Positions 17,219 to 26,899 of a DNA stretch of 27,072 nucleotides are shown here, piece after piece (within the stretch, counting starts at the first letter, position 1; each line of letters opens with the position of its first letter). Location: NCBI GenBank assembly GCA_020722405.1, contig DYKW01000001.1, positions 18,880 through 45,951 of the forward strand, in the 5' to 3' direction. Below the pieces are notes generated by a model, which was given only the letters and a program-made list of their open reading frames with translations, had not been told where the DNA came from and made no database searches. The DNA comes from Anaerolinea thermophila. Lineage in GTDB: Bacteria > Chloroflexota > Anaerolineae > Anaerolineales > DRKV01. The position numbers and the translations under genes are program-made.

Positions 17219-19371
17219 GCTTTTTCTTCCGTGGGTGTCTCTGGTGGGGTGCCCAACCGGATTTCCAGTGCACTAAAAGGCATATTTTCGCCTATTTCCT
17301 GTAGTGTATTTTGTAAGATGAGATCGACATCCAACGTCTCACGCATACTGCTGACGATTTGCGTGATGATCTGCTCACGGTGGGCACGTTCTTGCAAGTC
17401 GTTGAACAAACGGGCGCTTTCCAAGGCGTAGGCAATTTGCGTGCTGATTGAAGATAGGATTTCTTGTTCCTCTGGTAGCCAGGATTCCCCAGGGGCTTTC
17501 TCGGCATGAATACTGCCGATGACTTGTTCTTGTACCCGAATAGGAATCTCCAGCCCATCGGCGGTTGGCGGGGGCAACTGGCTGGTATCTAACCTGTGCA
17601 GCCCGCTGGCATCGCTCTCGTAACCCAGTAAGCGGGCCTCTAACAGGCGTTTCCAATCGGCGCGGCTAACCTCACCGTATAGGCGACGGCTGGCTTCAAG
17701 TGCGGCTTGATTTTCTGCTATCAGGCGCAGATTTTCGATGGCGATAGCAATCTGGTCGGCCAGGATTTGCAGAATTTGTAATTCGTCCGAACCAAAAGCC
17801 TCCGGATCGGTGCTTTGCATATCCAAGGCGCCCAAAATACGATTGCCGACTTTAAGAGGGAGGACGATTTCCGCGCGGGTTTGTGGCAAAAGGAGATTGG
17901 GTTTATAGAAGGGATCGTCGCTAATGTCGCGAGCGATGCGGGGTACACCAGTTTGGATTACGTGCCCGACAATACCTTCGGTTCCAACACGTAATGTGAT
18001 GCCTGAAGTTAGAATTTCATTGCTTGATTGTCCAGCGGTAGCCTGCAAGACAGCATGTTCGCCCGTTGCATCAAGTAGAAAGATACCGGTGTGATAAGTA
18101 TGAAAGCGCTCGTGAATCAGCAGTGCTACGCGTTTGAGTAGGATGTCAAGGTCGCTTTGGCTGGCAGCAGTTCGGGCAACTTCGGCGGTGGCCTGCAGGT
18201 AGGTAGTGCGCTTTTCCAGTTCTCGTGTGCGCTCTGCCACGCGGTGTTCCAAGGTGTCCATCACCTGTCTAATATGGGCGCTTATGGTATTGAATGCCCT
18301 GGCAAGCAGGCCAAGTTCGTCATTGGTTTCCAGCGCAATAGGCTGTTCCAGTTCTCCTTCCGTGATACTTTTCGCAGCCGTACGCAAGATGTCGATAGGC
18401 GCCAGTGTGCGGGTGACGGAATAGGCTGTGCCTATACCCCCTAAGAAGAGGGCTAATGCCAGTACCCCTAACGTGATAGCCAAACGTTGATTTTGGGTTT
18501 GGATGATGTCAGAACGGTCCAAGATGATTTCCACAATGCCGATGATACTATCGTTGTTATCGCGTAACGGCGCGGCCCTCACCGCCTGGCGGCTTTCCAG
18601 TGTTTGAATATAAGTCGTTTGGGATGTGCCTGCCAGGACATTCGCGTAAAAAGATGACAAATCTGTTTGCGGTGGTAGTGGCTGCTTGAGGGTGGTTGCA
18701 TAGCCACTGAGTGCCGGAACAGGGCCGGCAAAGTGGGCGGCGAATTGTGCATTGGCGGCAATCAGGGCATCGTTAAGTAACAGGATTTGAAAATCTGTTC
18801 CTATCCTATCTTTTAGGTTCTGCAAGGTGTTGATATCCATGTTCAGGGCGATTTCTACCACGCCAACAAAGTTATCGTTGAAAAACACAGGGGCGACACC
18901 GCGTATGGCCAGACCCTCCGCCCCGATTTCCGGACCGGCAGCGTTGTGTTGCGAGGCAATCGCGGCATTGACAACCGATGTAGACGTGGCGGTGGCTTCC
19001 TCTGGCTTGCCGCGGTGGACGGCGAGAAAAGCACTGCCATCAGGAAGATAAAATTGAAACTCTACAATTGGGAAATTCGTGCGCAGCCTTTGGTATACCG
19101 GACGGGTTTGGGCTAGCAGCGTGTAGCGATCACTACGTGCTAATGCTTGGGCAGCAACGGGGTTGCTTGCTATGCTGTTTGCCAGTCCCAAGGCTAGGTT
19201 GCTTTGCGTTTTTATTTCATCATTAAACATTTGCTGGAAGTGGTCGAGTGTTTGCGATTCATTGGCACGAGTCTCTACAGTAATGGTCAATCTCTGACCA
19301 ATGATGAGTGCGATGAGCAGAATAGCAAACCATAGTAACGTTGGAATGATGATTTTACGACTTAAGCGCAT
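17215..19371 (-). CDS. 2-TM dCache_3-like + HAMP + S-helix + GAF1/GAF2/tail sensor; no output domain
   Basis: TM1, then ALARSDRYTLL...EFQFYLPDGSAFLAVH...GLAIRGVAPVF (Cache_3-type), TM2, HAMP DELGLLARAFN, LEHRVAERT, GAF1 LPQTRAEIVLPL, tail RAHREQIITQIVSSMRETLDVDLIL. Confidence 0.9.
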   Translation of the reverse strand: MRLSRKIIIPTLLWFAILLIALIIGQRLTITVETRANESQTLDHFQQMFNDEIKTQSNLALGLANSIASNPVAAQALARSDRYTLLAQTRPVYQRLRTNFPIVEFQFYLPDGSAFLAVHRGKPEEATATSTSVVNAAIASQHNAAGPEIGAEGLAIRGVAPVFFNDNFVGVVEIALNMDINTLQNLKDRIGTDFQILLLNDALIAANAQFAAHFAGPVPALSGYATTLKQPLPPQTDLSSFYANVLAGTSQTTYIQTLESRQAVRAAPLRDNNDSIIGIVEIILDRSDIIQTQNQRLAITLGVLALALFLGGIGTAYSVTRTLAPIDILRTAAKSITEGELEQPIALETNDELGLLARAFNTISAHIRQVMDTLEHRVAERTRELEKRTTYLQATAEVARTAASQSDLDILLKRVALLIHERFHTYHTGIFLLDATGEHAVLQATAGQSSNEILTSGITLRVGTEGIVGHVIQTGVPRIARDISDDPFYKPNLLLPQTRAEIVLPLKVGNRILGALDMQSTDPEAFGSDELQILQILADQIAIAIENLRLIAENQAALEASRRLYGEVSRADWKRLLEARLLGYESDASGLHRLDTSQLPPPTADGLEIPIRVQEQVIGSIHAEKAPGESWLPEEQEILSSISTQIAYALESARLFNDLQERAHREQIITQIVSSMRETLDVDLILQNTLQEIGENMPFSALEIRLGTPPETPTEEKA

Positions 19372-19391: not shown

Positions 19392-21035
19392 TCAGGTAGT
19401 TTTCTGGTTTGAGGTATCTTCGCGTAATTGAATGCGCACACGCTGTAAGCGCAGGGCTCGTTGGATTTCGCTTGCACTGATGCGCAGAATGGTTTCCATG
19501 TCCAAACTGGCACGTACTTGCTCGGTAATGGTCGTTACGACTTGTTCGCGTTGAGCCTGCTGTAAGGTTTCGCTTACCAAACGCGCGTTTTCTAGTGCTT
19601 GAGCAGTTTGCGTGGCAATGGCTTGGGCAAATGCCCGATCGCTTTCATCCCAGGGTTGGCCGCCTTCCAGGGTAACTTCCCCAATGGTGACACCGCGTAG
19701 CGTTAAGGGAATACGCATGGTGCGAGTTTCAGAGATGACATTGGCGGCCAGCGGGTTTTCCAACTCATGTTCCAATTTTTGCCCCAGGGTGGTTCTGTGT
19801 TGCCATGCAGTTATTAGATATTGTTGGTTGAAGCGTTGTACTTGTTCCAGGGAGCGTTGTAATTGTTGTACTAACTGTACATTATTAATGGCGGTTGCCA
19901 ATGAGTTGGCAATGTTTTCCAGAATGGTGATATCTGTTTGATCGAAAGCATTTGGCCGTTCAGATTGGATGGTCAAGGCACCCCATACTTGGTCTCCCAG
20001 CATAATCGGTAGTGCCAGTTCAGAACGAGTCAATGGTAGCAACGGGTTGTTGAAACGAATGGCTTCTACTCCAGTATCCAGGGCTATACGCGCTTTGCGG
20101 TTTGCAATACACCAACCGATCATGGACGAACCACCAATGGCGAGTTTGTGACCGGCTATGTGCATTTTTTTGCCCGCTTCTCCGGTCCCTGCGTATAGGA
20201 TGGCATAGAGTCCCTGTTCGTCTATTAGAAAGACGCCACAGTAATACAATTGGAAACGTTCGCGCAACAGGTTTACCACGGTCGTCAGTAGAGAATCCAG
20301 GGTGGGAGCACGTCCTAATATGGCGGATATCTCTGCTGCTATATATAATTGTTCCTGACGATGCTCCATTTGTGTGGTATATGTTAGGTCCCGTTGGTGC
20401 TTTTCCTCTAGTTCGAGCGCAGTGTTTTGGTATTTTTTGGATGTATGGCCTAGTGTATTTACCAATGCCGCGATGCTGCTTACCAACACAACACTTATTA
20501 CCAAATAGGATGTACTGGTAGTCAACCAAGTTGTAAACTCTCCAGGCAACCCGACTTTTGTAAAGACGGGAGGGGGAATAATTTGGTATGTCATTAAAGC
20601 GCCGATGAAAAGCAGTGTAATGGTACTAAATAATGTTGCAACTAGACCAAAACCTAGCCCTAGGAAGAGGGTGCTGACGACCACCATGCCGAGCAACCAA
20701 ATACGACCATCACCAGCCGTAGCAAATTGTAAAGAGGCGCTGGTGCCAAGCACATATAATATCCCTACGACACTAACAACCTTCAAATGATAAGGCACGC
20801 GCTTGGTAAAGGCAATGAAAATTAGCCAGGCCGCTACCAGTGCATATATGGCAAGGTATCCCCAGGCTCTATTTTCGAGCATAGATGACAAATTGGTAAG
20901 GAGTGCTAGCATGCCAAACAAGCAAGAGACACGCAGGATGACAATGAGCAATGCTTCTCGTATTTCTTCCAGGGTGTAGCGATCTTGGAAGGAGTCTGGG
21001 ACAAAGAAGGCTTGCAAACGCGACCAAAAAGTCAT
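19392..21035 (-). CDS. Integral-membrane sensor (about 6 TM) + GAF1 + short GAF2 + truncated GAF tail; no output domain
   Basis: Hydrophobic N-terminal ~195 aa (AGDGRIWLLG...); GAF1 YYCGVFLID...NPLLPLTRSELALPI; tail QAQREQVVTTITEQVRASLDMETILRISASEIQRAL. Confidence 0.9.
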   Translation of the reverse strand: MTFWSRLQAFFVPDSFQDRYTLEEIREALLIVILRVSCLFGMLALLTNLSSMLENRAWGYLAIYALVAAWLIFIAFTKRVPYHLKVVSVVGILYVLGTSASLQFATAGDGRIWLLGMVVVSTLFLGLGFGLVATLFSTITLLFIGALMTYQIIPPPVFTKVGLPGEFTTWLTTSTSYLVISVVLVSSIAALVNTLGHTSKKYQNTALELEEKHQRDLTYTTQMEHRQEQLYIAAEISAILGRAPTLDSLLTTVVNLLRERFQLYYCGVFLIDEQGLYAILYAGTGEAGKKMHIAGHKLAIGGSSMIGWCIANRKARIALDTGVEAIRFNNPLLPLTRSELALPIMLGDQVWGALTIQSERPNAFDQTDITILENIANSLATAINNVQLVQQLQRSLEQVQRFNQQYLITAWQHRTTLGQKLEHELENPLAANVISETRTMRIPLTLRGVTIGEVTLEGGQPWDESDRAFAQAIATQTAQALENARLVSETLQQAQREQVVTTITEQVRASLDMETILRISASEIQRALRLQRVRIQLREDTSNQKTT

Positions 21036-23125
21036 TCGATACCCTCCTGGAGTTCGCCTGCCGAATCGGGTTGCGGTGAGGCGCTTGAAATTTCAGGGGA
21101 ATGGAGTTTAATGGACACGCGGCGTGCTCCTAAGTGACGACTTAGTTCCTGGGAGGCTGCATCCAGGATAGTTTGAACATCAAGGGAGGCGCGAACTTTT
21201 TCCGTAGCAGCATATAGTAAACGTTCGCGTTCCGTTTGTGTGCGGGCATCTGCAATGAGACTGGCATTACGAATGGCGATGGCTACCTGAGGGGCCAGTG
21301 TATTCAACAGCATCAGATCATCGTGGTTGAAGGCATTTTCGTGTTCGGTATCCTGGACATTTAGTACACCAATGACTTCGCCACCAACCATAAGTGGCAC
21401 CCCTAGCCAGGATTTGGCAAGTTTACCGTGTTGTTTCGCGCCTAATTCCAAGGCTTTGCGTTCGGTGTCTTCTACGAGCATTAAAGGCTTCTTTTCGCGA
21501 ATCACGATAGACGTTAACCCTTCACCTAACGGAATAGGATCCAGTTGCTCTATCTCACCGTCCTCGTACAAGTAAGGGATTTGTATGGTTTGAGTTTTGG
21601 GTGAATATATGGCAATGTAGAAGGCCACATCACCTATTACACGACTGACTTCCCGGTGAGTGACACTATAAAGGCGGTTAAGGTCAGTTTCAGTAGCCAG
21701 TGCCTGACCAACGGTACTAATTACCGAGAGATTAGAGACTTGCTCTTGTGTGCCGTGAATGGCGTCGATTTTTTCCAAAGCCACCCTGGCAAACTCTATC
21801 AAACTGACGTAGGGTTGCAAAACCGCGGGGGTCAATATTCCATTATCGCGGGCTCCCAAGATGTAAAGGGCGGCGAGGTGTTTTCCGCGCCATAAGGGAA
21901 TATAGGCGACTTCTTCACATTTTAGTTCACGCGGAACGTGTATCAGCACCGCTGGTAAGGTCGTCTCACTAAAATTAGAAATTAGCAAATAGCGCTGATT
22001 TCTGGGGATGACGGATTCCATTTCCCTTAGGGTGTAGGGAATGTATTTGGGTTCGTCGAAAGTGTGGTAACTTTCCTTTGATGGGGAAATACCATGCAGA
22101 CGTAAACGGTCGTTTTCAACAAGCAGGGTAGCAGATTGGAAGGATGTTTGTGCAAAAGCATGGGTGACTTGCTCCAGGATAGATGGCGCATCGTCCATCT
22201 GGCTAATTTGATGGCTGATTTCATAAAGCAGGTTTATTTCCTGTAAATTGAGGCGGGTATTTTCGAGTAAACGTACGTTGCGAATTGCCGATGCAATTTG
22301 GTCTGCTAGTGTTTGCAGGATAACAATGTCGTCTTCATCAAATGCGTCTGACTCAGTGCTTTGTATATCTAATACCCCTAACACTTCCTCGCCTATAGAA
22401 AGTGGTATACAGGCTTCGGAGCGTGTCTGTGGTAGCAACTCATCTTGTAGAAAGAGTCCATCCGTGGAGGTGTCACTCACGACGTGCGGTTCGTTGTTGA
22501 CGGTAACCCACCCAATAACAGAACGTGAACCGACGGCCAATTTATAGTTGCGTTCTTTGAGTTCTTGTCCTGCACTTCCAGTTGCCTCGCTTAGCACAGC
22601 GAATTTCTTTTGATGATCAAGCAGGAAGATGGCGGCATAATAATATTCGAATTGCTCTACAACTCGCTCGACAGTGATTCTTAACAATTCGTCTAAGTGG
22701 GTAGTGCGCGTTGCCAAACGGGTAATCTCGGCGGCTGTTCGAAACTCTGTCAGACGATGTTGTAAGGCGCGAGTGCGTTCTTGTACTCGTTGCTCAAGTT
22801 GTTTGTTGGTTGTTTTGAGGGCAGTTTGTAGTTTGAGAATTTGCTCTGTGATGATTTGATCCAGTGTTGCCCGGTCAATAAAACGCAACTCAACGAGAAT
22901 TTGCCCTAGTAGGCGCGGGTTGCCGGCAATCGCATTTGCTTTCTGATAATTTAATGCTTGTTCCAATTGCTCGGTAGTCAGCAAGTTTTTCTCAATGAGG
23001 TAATCTCCCAGACGAGATACCAGAATTTCTGGTGTCACCGGTATATCAATACTATCTGTAGACGGGACAATATTGTCACTTAGTGGATTGCCCGACGAAG
23101 GTTGATGGAATTGATTGGAAGACAT
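21032..23125 (-). CDS. Soluble MshEN (c-di-GMP-binding type) + S-helix + three GAF + truncated GAF tail protein
   Basis: Residues 38-61 RLGDYLIEKNLLTTEQLEQALNYQ and 71-95 RLLGQILVELRFIDRATLDQIITEQ fit the tandem MshEN motif; LEQRVQERT; no TM segment; tail ERERLLYAATEKVRASLDVQTILDAASQELSRHL. Confidence 0.88.
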   Translation of the reverse strand: MSSNQFHQPSSGNPLSDNIVPSTDSIDIPVTPEILVSRLGDYLIEKNLLTTEQLEQALNYQKANAIAGNPRLLGQILVELRFIDRATLDQIITEQILKLQTALKTTNKQLEQRVQERTRALQHRLTEFRTAAEITRLATRTTHLDELLRITVERVVEQFEYYYAAIFLLDHQKKFAVLSEATGSAGQELKERNYKLAVGSRSVIGWVTVNNEPHVVSDTSTDGLFLQDELLPQTRSEACIPLSIGEEVLGVLDIQSTESDAFDEDDIVILQTLADQIASAIRNVRLLENTRLNLQEINLLYEISHQISQMDDAPSILEQVTHAFAQTSFQSATLLVENDRLRLHGISPSKESYHTFDEPKYIPYTLREMESVIPRNQRYLLISNFSETTLPAVLIHVPRELKCEEVAYIPLWRGKHLAALYILGARDNGILTPAVLQPYVSLIEFARVALEKIDAIHGTQEQVSNLSVISTVGQALATETDLNRLYSVTHREVSRVIGDVAFYIAIYSPKTQTIQIPYLYEDGEIEQLDPIPLGEGLTSIVIREKKPLMLVEDTERKALELGAKQHGKLAKSWLGVPLMVGGEVIGVLNVQDTEHENAFNHDDLMLLNTLAPQVAIAIRNASLIADARTQTERERLLYAATEKVRASLDVQTILDAASQELSRHLGARRVSIKLHSPEISSASPQPDSAGELQEGIE

Positions 23126-23245: not shown

Positions 23246-23704
23246 TTATCCGGTAATTTCCCAGACCGATTCACCTGCTAATATGCGGCGTATTTGATCT
23301 GGAAAACGATCAGGGTTGAGGGGTTTTCCGATAAACCCGTCAAAACCAGCCTCCCGTGCCTTTTTAATTTGTTCTAAACTGGCTTCAGCAGTGACAGCCA
23401 CCACTAAAGTGTCTTTCAGCCGTTTGGATGCCCGAATTTTCTTAAGTGCTCCGTATCCATCTTCATAGGGGAGGCGGATATCCATGAGCACTAAGTCGAC
23501 GTGTGGCAAAGTGTCGGCGTATTCGACAACCTCATATCCGGACGTTTTCCATTCGCAGTGAATACCCATGTAACCGAGCATACGGGCAATCAAAACAAAG
23601 TTGGAAACATTGTCTTCAACTACTAGAACAATGGCGTCATTGGGGATGATGTTCTCGTTTTTTGAGGATTGTGGAGATGGAGATGGAGATTCAGGAATTG
23701 ACAT
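23246..23704 (-). CDS. Single-domain response regulator receiver (DivK/CheY-like)
   Basis: VLVVEDN, DLVLMDIRLPYEDG (phospho-Asp), VTAEA, GFDGFIGKP; short Ser/Pro-rich N-terminal extension. Confidence 0.93.
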   Translation of the reverse strand: MSIPESPSPSPQSSKNENIIPNDAIVLVVEDNVSNFVLIARMLGYMGIHCEWKTSGYEVVEYADTLPHVDLVLMDIRLPYEDGYGALKKIRASKRLKDTLVVAVTAEASLEQIKKAREAGFDGFIGKPLNPDRFPDQIRRILAGESVWEITG

Positions 23705-23726: not shown

Positions 23727-24110
23727 TTAGCGGCCCAGATAGGTATTGATTTGCCTGGGCAGGCTGTCAACATCTATCGGTTTTTGAATGTAACCATCAC
23801 ATCCGGCATCTAGTGTGCGTTCTTTGTCTCCGCGCATTACATTGGCGGTTAACGCAACGATGGGCACACCTTTTAAATGTGGAATCTGTTTGAGTTTGGT
23901 GGTTAGCGTATAGCCGTCCATGTCTGGCATGTTGATGTCCACCAAAATTAAATCGGGGCGAAAATCTTTTTGGATGATTTCCAATGCTTGCAGTGCGTTT
24001 TCGGCCTCAACGACATTGAAGTCCTCAGCCATCAAAATGCGCCGGATGAGCAGACGGTTATCTGGGTTGTCTTCGACATATAGGATGGTAATGGTATCTT
24101 GATCAAACAT
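23727..24110 (-). CDS. Single-domain response regulator receiver (DivK-like)
   Basis: ILYVEDN, DLILVDINMPDMDG, LTANVMRGDKERTLDAGCDGYIQKPI; GGAG upstream. Confidence 0.95.
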   Translation of the reverse strand: MFDQDTITILYVEDNPDNRLLIRRILMAEDFNVVEAENALQALEIIQKDFRPDLILVDINMPDMDGYTLTTKLKQIPHLKGVPIVALTANVMRGDKERTLDAGCDGYIQKPIDVDSLPRQINTYLGR

Positions 24111-24710: not shown

Positions 24711-24782
24711 AGCGGGCGATGGGACTCGAACCCACGACATTCAGCTTGGGAAGCTGACGTTCTACCACTGAACTACGCCCGC
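24711..24782 (-). tRNA. tRNA-Gly (anticodon CCC); CCA not encoded
   Basis: GCGGGCGTAGTTCAGTGGTAGAACGTCAGCTTCCCAAGCTGAATGTCGTGGGTTCGAGTCCCATCGCCCGCT: 7-bp acceptor stem, CAGC/GCTG anticodon stem around TTCCCAA, GTTCGA T-loop, U73 discriminator. Confidence 0.97.
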
Positions 24783-24857: not shown

Positions 24858-25469
24858 TTAATGTACATTCTCAGTTTGTTGTGCTGTCTGGATAAATGTG
24901 TCTATGTCCTTGGATAGCATTAAAGGTAAGAATGCTACTATTTTTTCCCGTGGCCAATTCCACCACTGGATCATTTCCAATGCTTGTATCTGTTCATGTG
25001 TGAAACGATAGTGAATGATTTTGGCAGGATTCCCTGTTGCTATGGCATAGGGAGGAATATTACGAGTAACAACACTTCGCGCTGCAATAACTGCTCCGTT
25101 TCCTATATTAACACCAGAGAGAATCATTGCATCTTTCCCAAGCCAAACATCATTGCCAATAATTACATCTCCTTTAGAACGAGGATGTCCGGAAATGTTT
25201 CTGGCTTCTGGGAATATGACGGGAAAAGGATAAGTAGTTGCCCAATCTACGCGATGTTCTCCACCTAATAGGATGACCACTCCTTCAGCAATCGAACAAA
25301 AACGACCGATTTCCAATCGTGTCCCTTCTCCCCAAGATAGTACTCTGGGAAAACCGTAAGTGTACTCCCCAATTTTATACTGACTAAGTGACGGGAGTGT
25401 TTTGGTGTAGATTGGTTTATGAGGAAAGAATATTTTCTTAAGTGTGTGTAATATCTTCTTGCACAACAT
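24858..25469 (-). CDS. CatB/Vat-related O-acetyltransferase (hexapeptide-repeat, xenobiotic acyltransferase family)
   Basis: IGEYTYG, LEIGRFCSIA, GGEHRVDWATTYPF, KGDVIIGNDVWLG...IGNGAVIAARSVVTRNIPPYAIATGNPAKII, IQWWNW. Confidence 0.9.
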   Translation of the reverse strand: MLCKKILHTLKKIFFPHKPIYTKTLPSLSQYKIGEYTYGFPRVLSWGEGTRLEIGRFCSIAEGVVILLGGEHRVDWATTYPFPVIFPEARNISGHPRSKGDVIIGNDVWLGKDAMILSGVNIGNGAVIAARSVVTRNIPPYAIATGNPAKIIHYRFTHEQIQALEMIQWWNWPREKIVAFLPLMLSKDIDTFIQTAQQTENVH

Positions 25470-25734: not shown

Positions 25735-25777
25735 TAGGCTGATTGTGGTATCCTGCTTTCCAAAAAAAGGAGGCAGG

Positions 25778-26899
25778 ATGGCCAAGAGATACATCGTCAC
25801 CTTGAGTGCCGAGGAGCAACAGACCTTACACAATCTGACTAACTCTGGCACTCACCGCGCCCGCAAAATCACTCATGCGCGTATTCTCCTCAAGGTTGGT
25901 GAAGGTTGGTCGGATCAACAAATCAGTGACGCATTGGATGTGAGTGTCTCAACCATCGAACGGGTGCGCCAGCACTTTGTGCTGGATGGGTTGGAGGCTG
26001 CTCTAAATCGGCGTTCCCCTGTCCGCGAGTACAGCCGAAAGTTCGACGGTGAGCGAGAAGCACATCTGATTGCCCTGGTTTGTGGCAAGCCGCCTGACGG
26101 ACATGCGCGCTGGAGTCTGCGCTTGCTGGCTGACCAACTGGTGGAGTTAGAGTACATTGACAGCGTCTCGCACGAAACCGTCCGACAGGTCTTGAACGAC
26201 AACGAACTGAAGCCTTGGCTCAAGAAGGAATGGTGTATTCCGCCGCAAGCCAATGCCGAGTTTGTTTACCATATAGAAGGCGTGTTGGACGTGTACAAAC
26301 GCGCTGCGGAGCCGACCCATCTCATCGTGTGTTTTGACGAGATCCCCGAACAACTGGTAAGCGAGACACGGTTGCCACTCCCGGCAGAACCAGGCCAGCC
26401 GAAACGTTACGATTATGAGTATCGTCGCGAGGGGGTCGTCAATTTGTTTATGTTCTTCGCTCCTCTGCAAAATTGGCGGCACGTCAAAGTCACCGATTGG
26501 CGCACCAAAGCCGACTGGGCCGAATGTATGCGTGACTTGGTTGACGTCCACTTTCCTGACGCTGAAAAGGTCACTGTGGTCCAAGATCAACTGAACACGC
26601 ATGACCCAGCGGCCTTGTACGAGGTGTTTCCACCGGCCGAGGCAAAGCGTATTCTGGATCGGTTGGAGTTCCACTTTACACCCAAGCATGGCAGTTGGCT
26701 CAACATGGCGGAGATCGAACTCAGCGTACTTAATCAACAATGTCTTGACCGATATATCTCCGACAAGCTAACCTTGGCTGAGGAAACACTGGCTTGGGAG
26801 ACGAGGCGTAATGGCAATGGTGCAACCGTCAACTGGCGTTTCACAACCGAAGATGCCCGTATCAAACTCAAGCGCCTCTACCCATCAATTCAGCCTTGA
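25778..26899 (+). CDS. IS630-family transposase
   Basis: N-terminal HTH RARILLK...TIERVRQHFV, WSLRLLA; DDE segments VCFDE, VVQDQLNTH and PKHGSWLNMAEIELS. ATG 25778 follows GGAGG; the track starts at 25745. Confidence 0.93.
   Translation: MAKRYIVTLSAEEQQTLHNLTNSGTHRARKITHARILLKVGEGWSDQQISDALDVSVSTIERVRQHFVLDGLEAALNRRSPVREYSRKFDGEREAHLIALVCGKPPDGHARWSLRLLADQLVELEYIDSVSHETVRQVLNDNELKPWLKKEWCIPPQANAEFVYHIEGVLDVYKRAAEPTHLIVCFDEIPEQLVSETRLPLPAEPGQPKRYDYEYRREGVVNLFMFFAPLQNWRHVKVTDWRTKADWAECMRDLVDVHFPDAEKVTVVQDQLNTHDPAALYEVFPPAEAKRILDRLEFHFTPKHGSWLNMAEIELSVLNQQCLDRYISDKLTLAEETLAWETRRNGNGATVNWRFTTEDARIKLKRLYPSIQP

Follow-up and report, generated by a model that had tools for sequence, protein, structure and literature searches.

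A long-spacer MshEN_N module, a predicted c-di-GMP receptor, heads a soluble GAF-domain sensor in Anaerolineales

What does a soluble protein sense when it precedes a row of membrane sensors and carries the same signaling domains as they do? The question is raised by a gene on the minus strand of a 27,072-nucleotide stretch, here called the window, of a metagenome-assembled genome (MAG) listed as Anaerolinea thermophila (GenBank assembly GCA_020722405.1, contig DYKW01000001.1, forward-strand positions 18,880 to 45,951). The gene encodes a 697-residue protein, here the MshEN_N-GAF protein, whose first GAF domain recurs in eight membrane-bound paralogs encoded downstream. The original prediction, made from the DNA letters without database searches, had read an MshEN-type module near its N terminus as a receptor for cyclic di-GMP (c-di-GMP). 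We found that residues 38-95 are a genuine homologue of MshEN_N, the N-terminal half of the MshEN domain, a conclusion supported by profile search, by comparison with Protein Data Bank (PDB) sequences, and by the predicted fold. The module belongs to a distinct MshEN_N subfamily that lacks the MshEN_C half, separates its motifs by 10 residues, and starts motif II with Leu; judging from sequence, models, and analogy with characterized receptors, it probably binds c-di-GMP. The gene and the parts of its input end are as follows.

21032-23125, minus strand: gene for the MshEN_N-GAF protein (697 amino acids, soluble), from the open reading frame (ORF) and its translation
23015-23035, minus strand: short N-terminal extension T/S-P-E-I/V-L-V/I-P/S before motif I, residues 31-37, from alignment and models
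22943-23014, minus strand: MshEN motif I, residues 38-61, from direct reading, the NCBIfam model NF053729, and a HMMER alignment to MshE residues 9-32
22913-22942, minus strand: spacer, residues 62-71, holding the conserved G68, from alignment and models
22841-22912, minus strand: MshEN motif II, residues 72-95, from direct reading, NF053729, and phmmer
22706-22840, minus strand: signaling helix (S-helix), residues 96-140, including LEQRVQERT, from models and homology to the paralogs

The family assignment is carried by NF053729, a 53-position hidden Markov model (HMM) for the MshE-related c-di-GMP motif: all of its positions (1-53 of 53) aligned to codons 38-95 of the 697-codon ORF (window positions 22841-23014) at 47.4 bits, above the cutoff of 38 (E = 1.2e-12). 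A six-frame search of the whole MAG with this model returned two sites only, including this one (six-frame score, 50.2 bits). Among PDB sequences, phmmer ranked Vibrio cholerae MshE (5HTL) first (E = 3.3e-5), followed by PilF and PilB, and the module also gave weak NCBIfam matches to NfrB-type C termini.

Motif I reads R-L-G-D-Y-L-I-E-K-N-L-L-(4)-L-(3)-L-(2)-Q, with R38, L39, and G40 and then L54, L58, and Q61 at the contact positions; as the original prediction had it, the repeat fits the consensus RLGxx(L/V/I)(L/V/I)xxG(L/V/I)(L/V/I)xxxxLxxxLxxQ everywhere except at the turn glycine, which is N47. The second, degenerate repeat said to follow is found at residues 72-95: motif II keeps L-G at positions 2 and 3, the hydrophobic core, L88, I92, and Q95; its first position is L72 instead of the canonical Arg, an Arg (R71) lies one residue earlier, and the turn glycine is R81. 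The spacer between the motifs has 10 residues versus the canonical 5; in the models, helix 2 reaches residue 66 and is followed by a loop. The P, E, and L of the N-terminal extension are nearly invariant in the alignment of relatives, and AlphaFold2 (AF2) models place a short helix at residues 32-35. With its tandem motifs, full-length model match, and predicted four-helix bundle, the module has the makeup of MshEN_N; it lacks the turn glycine at motif position 10 and the five-residue spacer.

A Pfam search for MshEN had been proposed as a check, and the result was divided: PF05157 (MshEN/T2SSE_N) had no match at E ≤ 1 in the 697-residue protein, which is thus outside the full Pfam domain, while the shorter NCBIfam model matched above its cutoff. 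PF05157 describes the entire domain, with its alpha/beta MshEN_C half, and we attribute the miss to the absence of this subdomain from the module: the S-helix follows helix 4 directly and so leaves no room for MshEN_C. Nonhomology was considered as the cause and rejected. Only 4 of 70 relatives matched PF05157, all of the PilB/T2SSE type. Weak Pfam matches of the module to DUF4388, FumaraseC_C, and Dzip-like families lay below the cutoffs of those models and were disregarded.

The predicted structure points the same way. An AF2 model of residues 28-138 (predicted local distance difference test [pLDDT] score, 84) contains helices at residues 39-45, 51-66, and 73-79 and a fourth from residue 85 onward. 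The top 11 Foldseek matches in the PDB were all c-di-GMP-bound MshE or PilF GSPII-B, at 33-38% identity; 5htl_A superimposed with a root mean square deviation (rmsd) of 1.4 Å over 60 columns (38% identity), and the best Foldseek E value was weak (0.018) because the domain is small. VIA-align gave a Z score of 7.7 for 5htl_B (rmsd, 2.5 Å; 60 residues aligned) and 6.9 for 8pdk_B (1.9 Å; 57 aligned), with unrelated chains at 4.1 or less.

A profile of the module retrieved 4,439 clusters at E ≤ 1e-3, of which 455 remained at E ≤ 1e-10, and conservation was counted in 131 single-module relatives at 50%-cluster depth. The 12 positions that match contact residues of MshE had a mean entropy of 0.55 bits versus 2.24 bits at the other noncore positions (Mann-Whitney P = 3e-6; n = 131). 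R38 is kept in 122 relatives, G40 in 129, and Q61 in 122; L72 is Leu in 115, G74 is Gly in all 131, and Q95 is Gln in 119. The Arg, Gly, and Gln positions that contact the ligand in MshE, which lie outside the core of its bundle, are retained in the module. The turn position varies: it is Gly in 98 of 131 relatives in motif I and in 65 of 131 in motif II, so that N47 and R81 occupy consensus positions of the motif that are among the least constrained; P0004, a close orthologue, has kept the turn Gly. The 10-residue spacer is shared by 121 of the 131. R71 is Arg in only 34 and is therefore an unlikely substitute for the missing motif II Arg. Three near-invariant residues, G68, D89, and T93, are specific to the subfamily and absent from MshE; D89 is kept in 122 relatives and T93 in 110 (residues 89-93 are window positions 22847-22861), where MshE has Leu and Ala.

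How these residues could hold a ligand is known from MshE, in which the side chain at motif position 1 forms a stack with guanine, O6 and N7 are bonded by two amides (those of Gly-3 and of the residue after it) where helices 1 and 3 have their free N termini, the bases are touched by the Leu cluster, and ribose and phosphate are bonded by the terminal Gln (PMC5013675). Isolated MshEN_N (residues 1-62) binds c-di-GMP without MshEN_C, with a dissociation constant (KD) of 0.35 µM (PMC5013675); the absence of MshEN_C from the protein studied here is therefore no obstacle. We had considered the Leu in place of the motif II Arg as a serious defect, and dropped this view since GSPII-B of PilF naturally has Leu (L196) at that position and binds with a KD of 6 nM (PMC11731258). 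Its motif I variant K167L binds at 2 nM, and the consensus start was widened to (R/K/L)LG (PMC11731258); under this widened consensus both of our motifs begin with (R/K/L)-L-G and end in L...L..Q. Ile for Leu at position 21 (compare I92) costs only about 2.4-fold in PilF (PMC12002112). In our models, Pro/Ser breaks precede helices 1 and 3, which start at the motifs and lack the N-terminal elongation of their counterparts in the nonbinder PilF GSPII-A.

If the module does bind, R38-L39-G40 and L72-L73-G74 at the exposed N termini of helices 1 and 3 would receive one extended c-di-GMP molecule, which would also be held by the triplets of helices 2 and 4 (L54, L58, and Q61; L88, I92, and Q95).

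Several observations weigh against binding. PilF GSPII-A can fail to bind, for structural reasons, even with a fully restored consensus, and in engineered GSPII-A a change of the motif II Arg to Ser abolishes binding (PMC12002112). The turn glycines, replaced here by N47 and R81, are highly conserved and needed for the helix turns according to Wang et al. (PMC5013675), and our spacer is twice the canonical length, the longest among known binders in the PilF alignment being 7 residues (PilF GSPII-C). A homodimer model packs L72 and Q75 on D89 and T93 of the partner chain, so that the expected ligand surface may partly serve dimer contacts. Because the profile that picked out the relatives was made from this very family, conservation may look stronger than it is, and the conserved hydrophobic contact positions could reflect folding rather than ligand binding. 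To these is added the PF05157 result.

The alternative that best survives these points is that the MshEN_N fold was kept and nucleotide binding was lost, the module now serving as a dimerization cap or a protein-docking head for the rod of S-helix and GAF domains, much as the N domains of GspE/XpsE or Xanthomonas PilB bind partner proteins and not c-di-GMP. Documented nonbinders do share the fold (XpsE, PMC5013675; PilF GSPII-A, PMC12002112), nonbinding PilB N domains complexed with PilZ were among our fold matches (Z of about 5), and the substituted turn glycines, the spacer of 10 instead of 5, the missing Pfam match, and the dimer contacts of L72 and Q75 with the subfamily-specific D89 and T93 all fit such a loss. 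However, XpsE-like nonbinders have lost several key residues, whereas R38, G40, Q61, G74, and Q95 are near-invariant across the relatives examined here; their MshE equivalents (R9, G11, Q32, G40, and Q61) are ligand contacts outside the core, and folding alone would need none of them. Moreover, the positions that deviate are those that vary freely in the family, and the module is the sole sensor domain of a kinase family found in most sampled genomes of the order. We regard loss of binding as a real but unlikely possibility.

It is improbable that the module binds a different cyclic dinucleotide, such as 3'3'-cGAMP, or a guanine nucleotide, the spacer and Leu changes reflecting altered specificity. 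A section heading in Wang et al. (PMC5013675), "MshEN can also bind cGAMP," and the subfamily's own invariant residues G68, D89, and T93, absent from MshE, speak for it; set against them, both half-sites keep the guanine-recognizing Gly amides, the Leu clusters, and the Gln residues, and the genome encodes many GGDEF cyclases. Finally, chance resemblance in an ordinary helical linker might be suspected of a short, Leu-rich, helical region with so weak a best Foldseek E value, but it is already refuted by the HMM match above a curated cutoff, the restriction to two sites in the MAG, and the 455 clusters, and the top structural matches were all MshE or PilF GSPII-B.

Binding of c-di-GMP thus stays our preferred reading. 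The overall explanation that we judge best, and consider likely, is an MshEN_N four-helix bundle that has c-di-GMP as its ligand and is coupled through helix 4 to the S-helix/GAF rod. The remainder of the protein, which bears on this coupling, is made up as follows.

22241-22705, minus strand: GAF1 and its exit helix, residues 141-295, common to all eight membrane sensors (Pfam GAF, E = 5.8e-37; 36-41% identity per paralog)
21836-22198, minus strand: divergent GAF-like alpha/beta domain, residues 310-430, peculiar to the MshEN_N-GAF protein (AF2 pattern of helix, strands, helix)
21266-21688, minus strand: GAF3, residues 480-620, full size where the paralogs have an abbreviated second GAF (Pfam GAF_2, E = 9.3e-42 at residues 480-618)
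21071-21217, minus strand: C-terminal truncated-GAF stub, residues 637-685, common to the membrane sensors (blastp to four paralogs; helix 650-665 in the model)

The order of parts is therefore MshEN_N, S-helix, GAF1, divergent GAF-like domain, GAF3, a long helix of 45 residues, and the truncated-GAF stub; the AF2 model of the full-length protein has a mean pLDDT of 79. Pfam matched GAF at residues 143-281 and 480-618 and no other significant family in the 697-residue protein. For the divergent domain, neither Pfam nor blastp against the eight paralogs gave a match, and blastp matches of GAF3 to the paralogs were only partial.

Comparison with the paralogs locates the difference at the input end. 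The S-helix and GAF1 (residues 100-295) are 36-41% identical to the segment that follows HAMP or the transmembrane (TM) region in all eight, and the LEQRVQERT S-helix is homologous to their post-HAMP helix. Neither the N-terminal module nor the middle domain has an equivalent among the paralogs; only in these two regions does the MshEN_N-GAF protein depart from them. The maximum 19-residue Kyte-Doolittle mean of the protein is 1.42, so that it has no hydrophobic or TM segment, whereas in every one of the eight paralogs two or more segments reach at least 1.6. The MshEN_N module takes the place of the paralogs' TM/HAMP input, directly before the common S-helix and GAF1. On both counts, the solubility of the protein and the position of the module before LEQRVQERT and GAF1, the paralog comparison agrees with what had been predicted.

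In both AF2 models a single helix spans residues 85-140: helix 4, which carries L88, I92, and Q95, runs unbroken into the S-helix. The protein has the features of S-helix transducers, a long, predicted parallel dimeric coiled coil with an LExRVxERT-like motif. A homodimer model of residues 28-295 reached an ipSAE score of 0.51 versus 0.00 for the best of three controls; the mark that it passes was reached in the calibration by 20 of 30 proteins solved as pairs of one chain and, among 23 solved as single chains, by 1, counts that hold only roughly here because our own alignment was used and an unscored c-di-GMP ligand was included. Agreement among the three runs covers at least 63% of contacts, with a partner pLDDT of 82 or more. 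Parallel GAF/coiled-coil dimers have already been solved, and the pass may therefore reflect likeness to them. Symmetric contacts at residues 92/96/99/103/106/110/113/117, in heptad-like spacing, each residue meeting its own equivalent, argue for a parallel coiled coil that starts inside the module. In the same model, L72 and Q75 (residues 72-75 are window positions 22901-22912) touch D89 and T93 of the partner beside the expected ligand site, and residue 36 of the N-terminal extension contacts the partner's S-helix.

Since helix 4 is continuous with the dimeric S-helix, binding would be expected to alter the coiled coil: ligand binding may shift its packing or register and so change the state of GAF1 and of the GAF rod. 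The protein has no enzymatic output and ends in a stub as the eight paralogs do, and signaling by protein contact is therefore expected. Its state would be relayed in this way to the downstream partner of the paralogs, for which the giant multi-GAF hybrid histidine kinase that closes the operon is the presumed candidate, so that intracellular c-di-GMP would be reported alongside the extracellular signals that the paralogs sense.

Known systems show both how ordinary the parts are and where the arrangement differs. V. cholerae MshE MshEN_N (PDB 5HTL; PMC5013675), the best sequence and fold match, likewise has two tandem 24-residue motifs in a four-helix bundle, and R-L-G-D and the L, L, and Q contact positions of motif I are identical. 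It differs in its 5-residue spacer and motif II Arg, where our module has 10 residues and Leu, with Asn and Arg for the turn glycines; furthermore, MshEN_C and the T2SSE ATPase are missing here, and helix 4 runs into the S-helix and GAF. The second-best fold match, Thermus thermophilus PilF GSPII-B (PDB 8PDK; PMC11731258), shares the L-L-G start of motif II, its Leu stacking on guanine, but lies within a triple GSPII array on a pilus ATPase and has a 5-residue spacer, turn glycines, and a C-terminal subdomain. The eight HAMP/S-helix-coupled membrane paralogs share S-helix, GAF1, and stub with our protein and presumably have their downstream partner in common with it; unlike the cytoplasmic four-helix nucleotide-receptor fold described here, their inputs are MASE11, dCache, or multi-TM segments plus HAMP.

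Use of MshEN_N as a portable module has precedents. Supplementary Table 4 of Wang et al. 2016 (PMC5013675) contains the MshEN_N-only fusions REC-MshEN_N, MshEN_N-AAA_31 (EpsG), (MshEN_N)2-CheX, CheA with an inserted MshEN_N, and Escherichia coli NfrB (GT2-MshEN), and the same paper also lists peptidase and cyclase fusions (PMC5013675). In these, as in our protein, a 53-residue module serves as a portable regulatory input on signaling or polysaccharide proteins. In contrast, that list includes neither MshEN_N-S-helix-GAF-only proteins nor MshEN_N-HisKA, and its sole GAF entry, GAF-MshEN-T2SSE, has GAF upstream of a pilus ATPase. Literature on MshEN with GAF, with histidine kinases, or in Chloroflexi described neither architecture (subscription journals were outside the coverage). 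The portable module is thus known; its use, in a distinct long-spacer subfamily, as the sensor of S-helix transducers would be new.

A sister family is far more widespread. The same module heads HisKA-HATPase kinases of about 340-470 residues in Anaerolineales, many copies of which have a zinc ribbon; they share the 10-residue spacer, Leu at position 1 of motif II, D89/T93, and the S-helix motif, their modules being 47-62% identical to ours, and differ in having a classical histidine kinase output instead of the GAF-GAF-GAF-stub. Of 201 sampled genomes of the order, 145 have the module, a spread to be expected of a real sensor domain, and most of these carry nothing but one copy of the kinase form; at E ≤ 1e-10, only 7 of 151 genomes sampled across the class Anaerolineae have it, and the subfamily is therefore concentrated in this order. 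In a tree that included the S-helix, the GAF-type modules formed one clade (Shimodaira-Hasegawa-like approximate likelihood ratio support, 98), to which the S-helix segment may contribute output-specific signal; in a tree of the 67-residue module only, seven changes were needed, and monophyly of the GAF type was neither supported nor rejected (approximately unbiased test, P = 0.48).

The second module copy of the MAG (locus L010, 3937-7740, contig C150) is a zinc-ribbon-MshEN_N-HisKA-HATPase kinase (3937-5160); after it come an OmpR-type response regulator (5078-5905), a DUF6812 protein, and a 446-residue T2SSE-family ATPase that lacks an MshEN domain of its own. Through this neighborhood, which is on another contig and concerns the sister family only, the kinase form may be linked to a pilus or secretion ATPase. 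Among the best profile matches were also proteins of 430-1,180 residues (P0023, P0027, P0032, P0034, P0035, and P0066) with six to eight tandem MshEN_N-like repeats, many starting with P-[LIM]-G, for which Pfam offers no more than partial matches to DUF4388, FumaraseC_C, or NHase_beta_N; such proteins may bind c-di-GMP at several sites or act as sponges for it.

The gene for the MshEN_N-GAF protein, which has an AGGA ribosome-binding site about 10 nucleotides 5' of its ATG, is the first sensor gene of an operon, whose other named genes are as follows.

23727-24110, minus strand: first stand-alone receiver (REC) gene, probably the first gene of the operon (Pfam Response_reg, E = 1.1e-28)
23246-23704, minus strand: second stand-alone REC gene, directly upstream of the sensor gene (Pfam Response_reg, E = 1.9e-20)
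19392-21035, minus strand: MASE11-GAF-stub membrane sensor, the next gene (Pfam MASE11 and GAF)
777-1553: ParA-type ATPase gene
2-805, continued at locus L003, 9705-18878: giant multi-GAF kinase gene, after the ParA-type ATPase gene

The MshEN_N-GAF gene and the MASE11-GAF-stub gene share 4 nucleotides, where the former stops and the latter starts, and the two are translationally coupled. Downstream of the MshEN_N-GAF gene lie the eight membrane GAF-stub sensors, an NMT1-type binding protein, and the ParA-type ATPase; the last gene, of more than 3,000 codons, encodes many GAF domains and a C-terminal HisKA-HATPase-REC-REC and is the only kinase gene of the operon. A weak promoter-like site was found at 24158-24131, upstream of the first REC gene. 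Farther upstream, tRNA-Gly(CCC) at 24711-24782 (minus strand) has a perfect sigma-70-type promoter (12 of 12; 24825-24797) and a terminator with a 13-bp stem (24710-24681); this unit divides a hexapeptide-transferase gene from the signaling genes, and the operon therefore probably starts at the first REC gene.

The order REC-REC-sensor is kept in L004 to L009; at all six loci examined for the GAF type, five of them besides the window, its gene is the first sensor gene behind two receivers. L004 and L005 have an MshEN_N-GAF orthologue about 62% identical to ours, L006 has a more distant orthologue followed by a CHASE4-GAF sensor, and L007-L009 come from three further genomes, one of a sister genus and two of another family of the order; the MASE11-GAF-stub neighbor recurs in L004, L005, and L008. 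The recurring order is REC-REC-MshEN_N-GAF-membrane sensors(-ParA-giant GAF protein). At the loci examined, the membrane sensors vary in number and input type, while the MshEN_N-GAF protein is constant and always the first sensor. None of the GAF-type relatives has a kinase domain, and phmmer found the stub in 18; the protein studied here is itself an output-less GAF-stub sensor, with GAF1 after the S-helix, a C-terminal stub, and no enzymatic output.

The surroundings of the operon differ between loci. In L004 it is preceded, on the same strand (positions 1-8274), by genes for a family 2 glycosyltransferase (GT2), several methyltransferases, a family 4 glycosyltransferase (GT4), and a hexapeptide transferase, a polysaccharide-type set whose counterpart in the window is the hexapeptide transferase alone (24858-25469), before an IS630-type transposase gene (25745-26899). 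The suggestion that the module hints at a role in motility, adhesion, or a filamentous lifestyle found no footing: nothing in the window or the syntenic loci links the operon to these.

A wider reading of this conserved order, which we offer tentatively and consider rather unlikely to hold as a whole, is that the MshEN_N-GAF protein is the obligatory cytoplasmic member of an assembly of two receivers, variable membrane GAF-stub sensors, a ParA-type ATPase, and a giant multi-GAF hybrid kinase, in which c-di-GMP bound at the head of the S-helix would gate or bias how the output-less sensors drive the single kinase.

Enzymes that make c-di-GMP are plentiful in this lineage. Wang et al. (PMC5013675) list 15 GGDEF proteins, 10 HD-GYP proteins, no PilZ, and a single MshEN for Anaerolinea thermophila; our MAG yielded 12 or more GGDEF matches plus one EAL fragment, and PilZ had no match in the MAG, which is 59% complete. 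An Rfam scan of the window found tRNA only and no c-di-GMP riboswitch. Anaerolineae as a class have many c-di-GMP cyclases and phosphodiesterases and few recognized receptors, and for a lineage short of such receptors the module, though assembled from parts that are all of known kinds, supplies concrete candidates. If the long-spacer MshEN_N subfamily binds c-di-GMP, its members would be receptors that act via a phosphorelay and not through pili or polysaccharide enzymes. The four-helix receptor could then be plugged as a sensor into S-helix transducers, with helix 4 both binding the ligand and beginning the coiled coil; this coupling model is simple, and the sister kinases offer a direct enzymatic readout. 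Should the assembly reading also prove true, it would represent a previously undescribed integration of a second messenger with many extracellular inputs and, together with the sister kinases, would provide c-di-GMP receptors for a lineage whose cultured relative, Anaerolinea thermophila, has no PilZ in the list of Wang et al.

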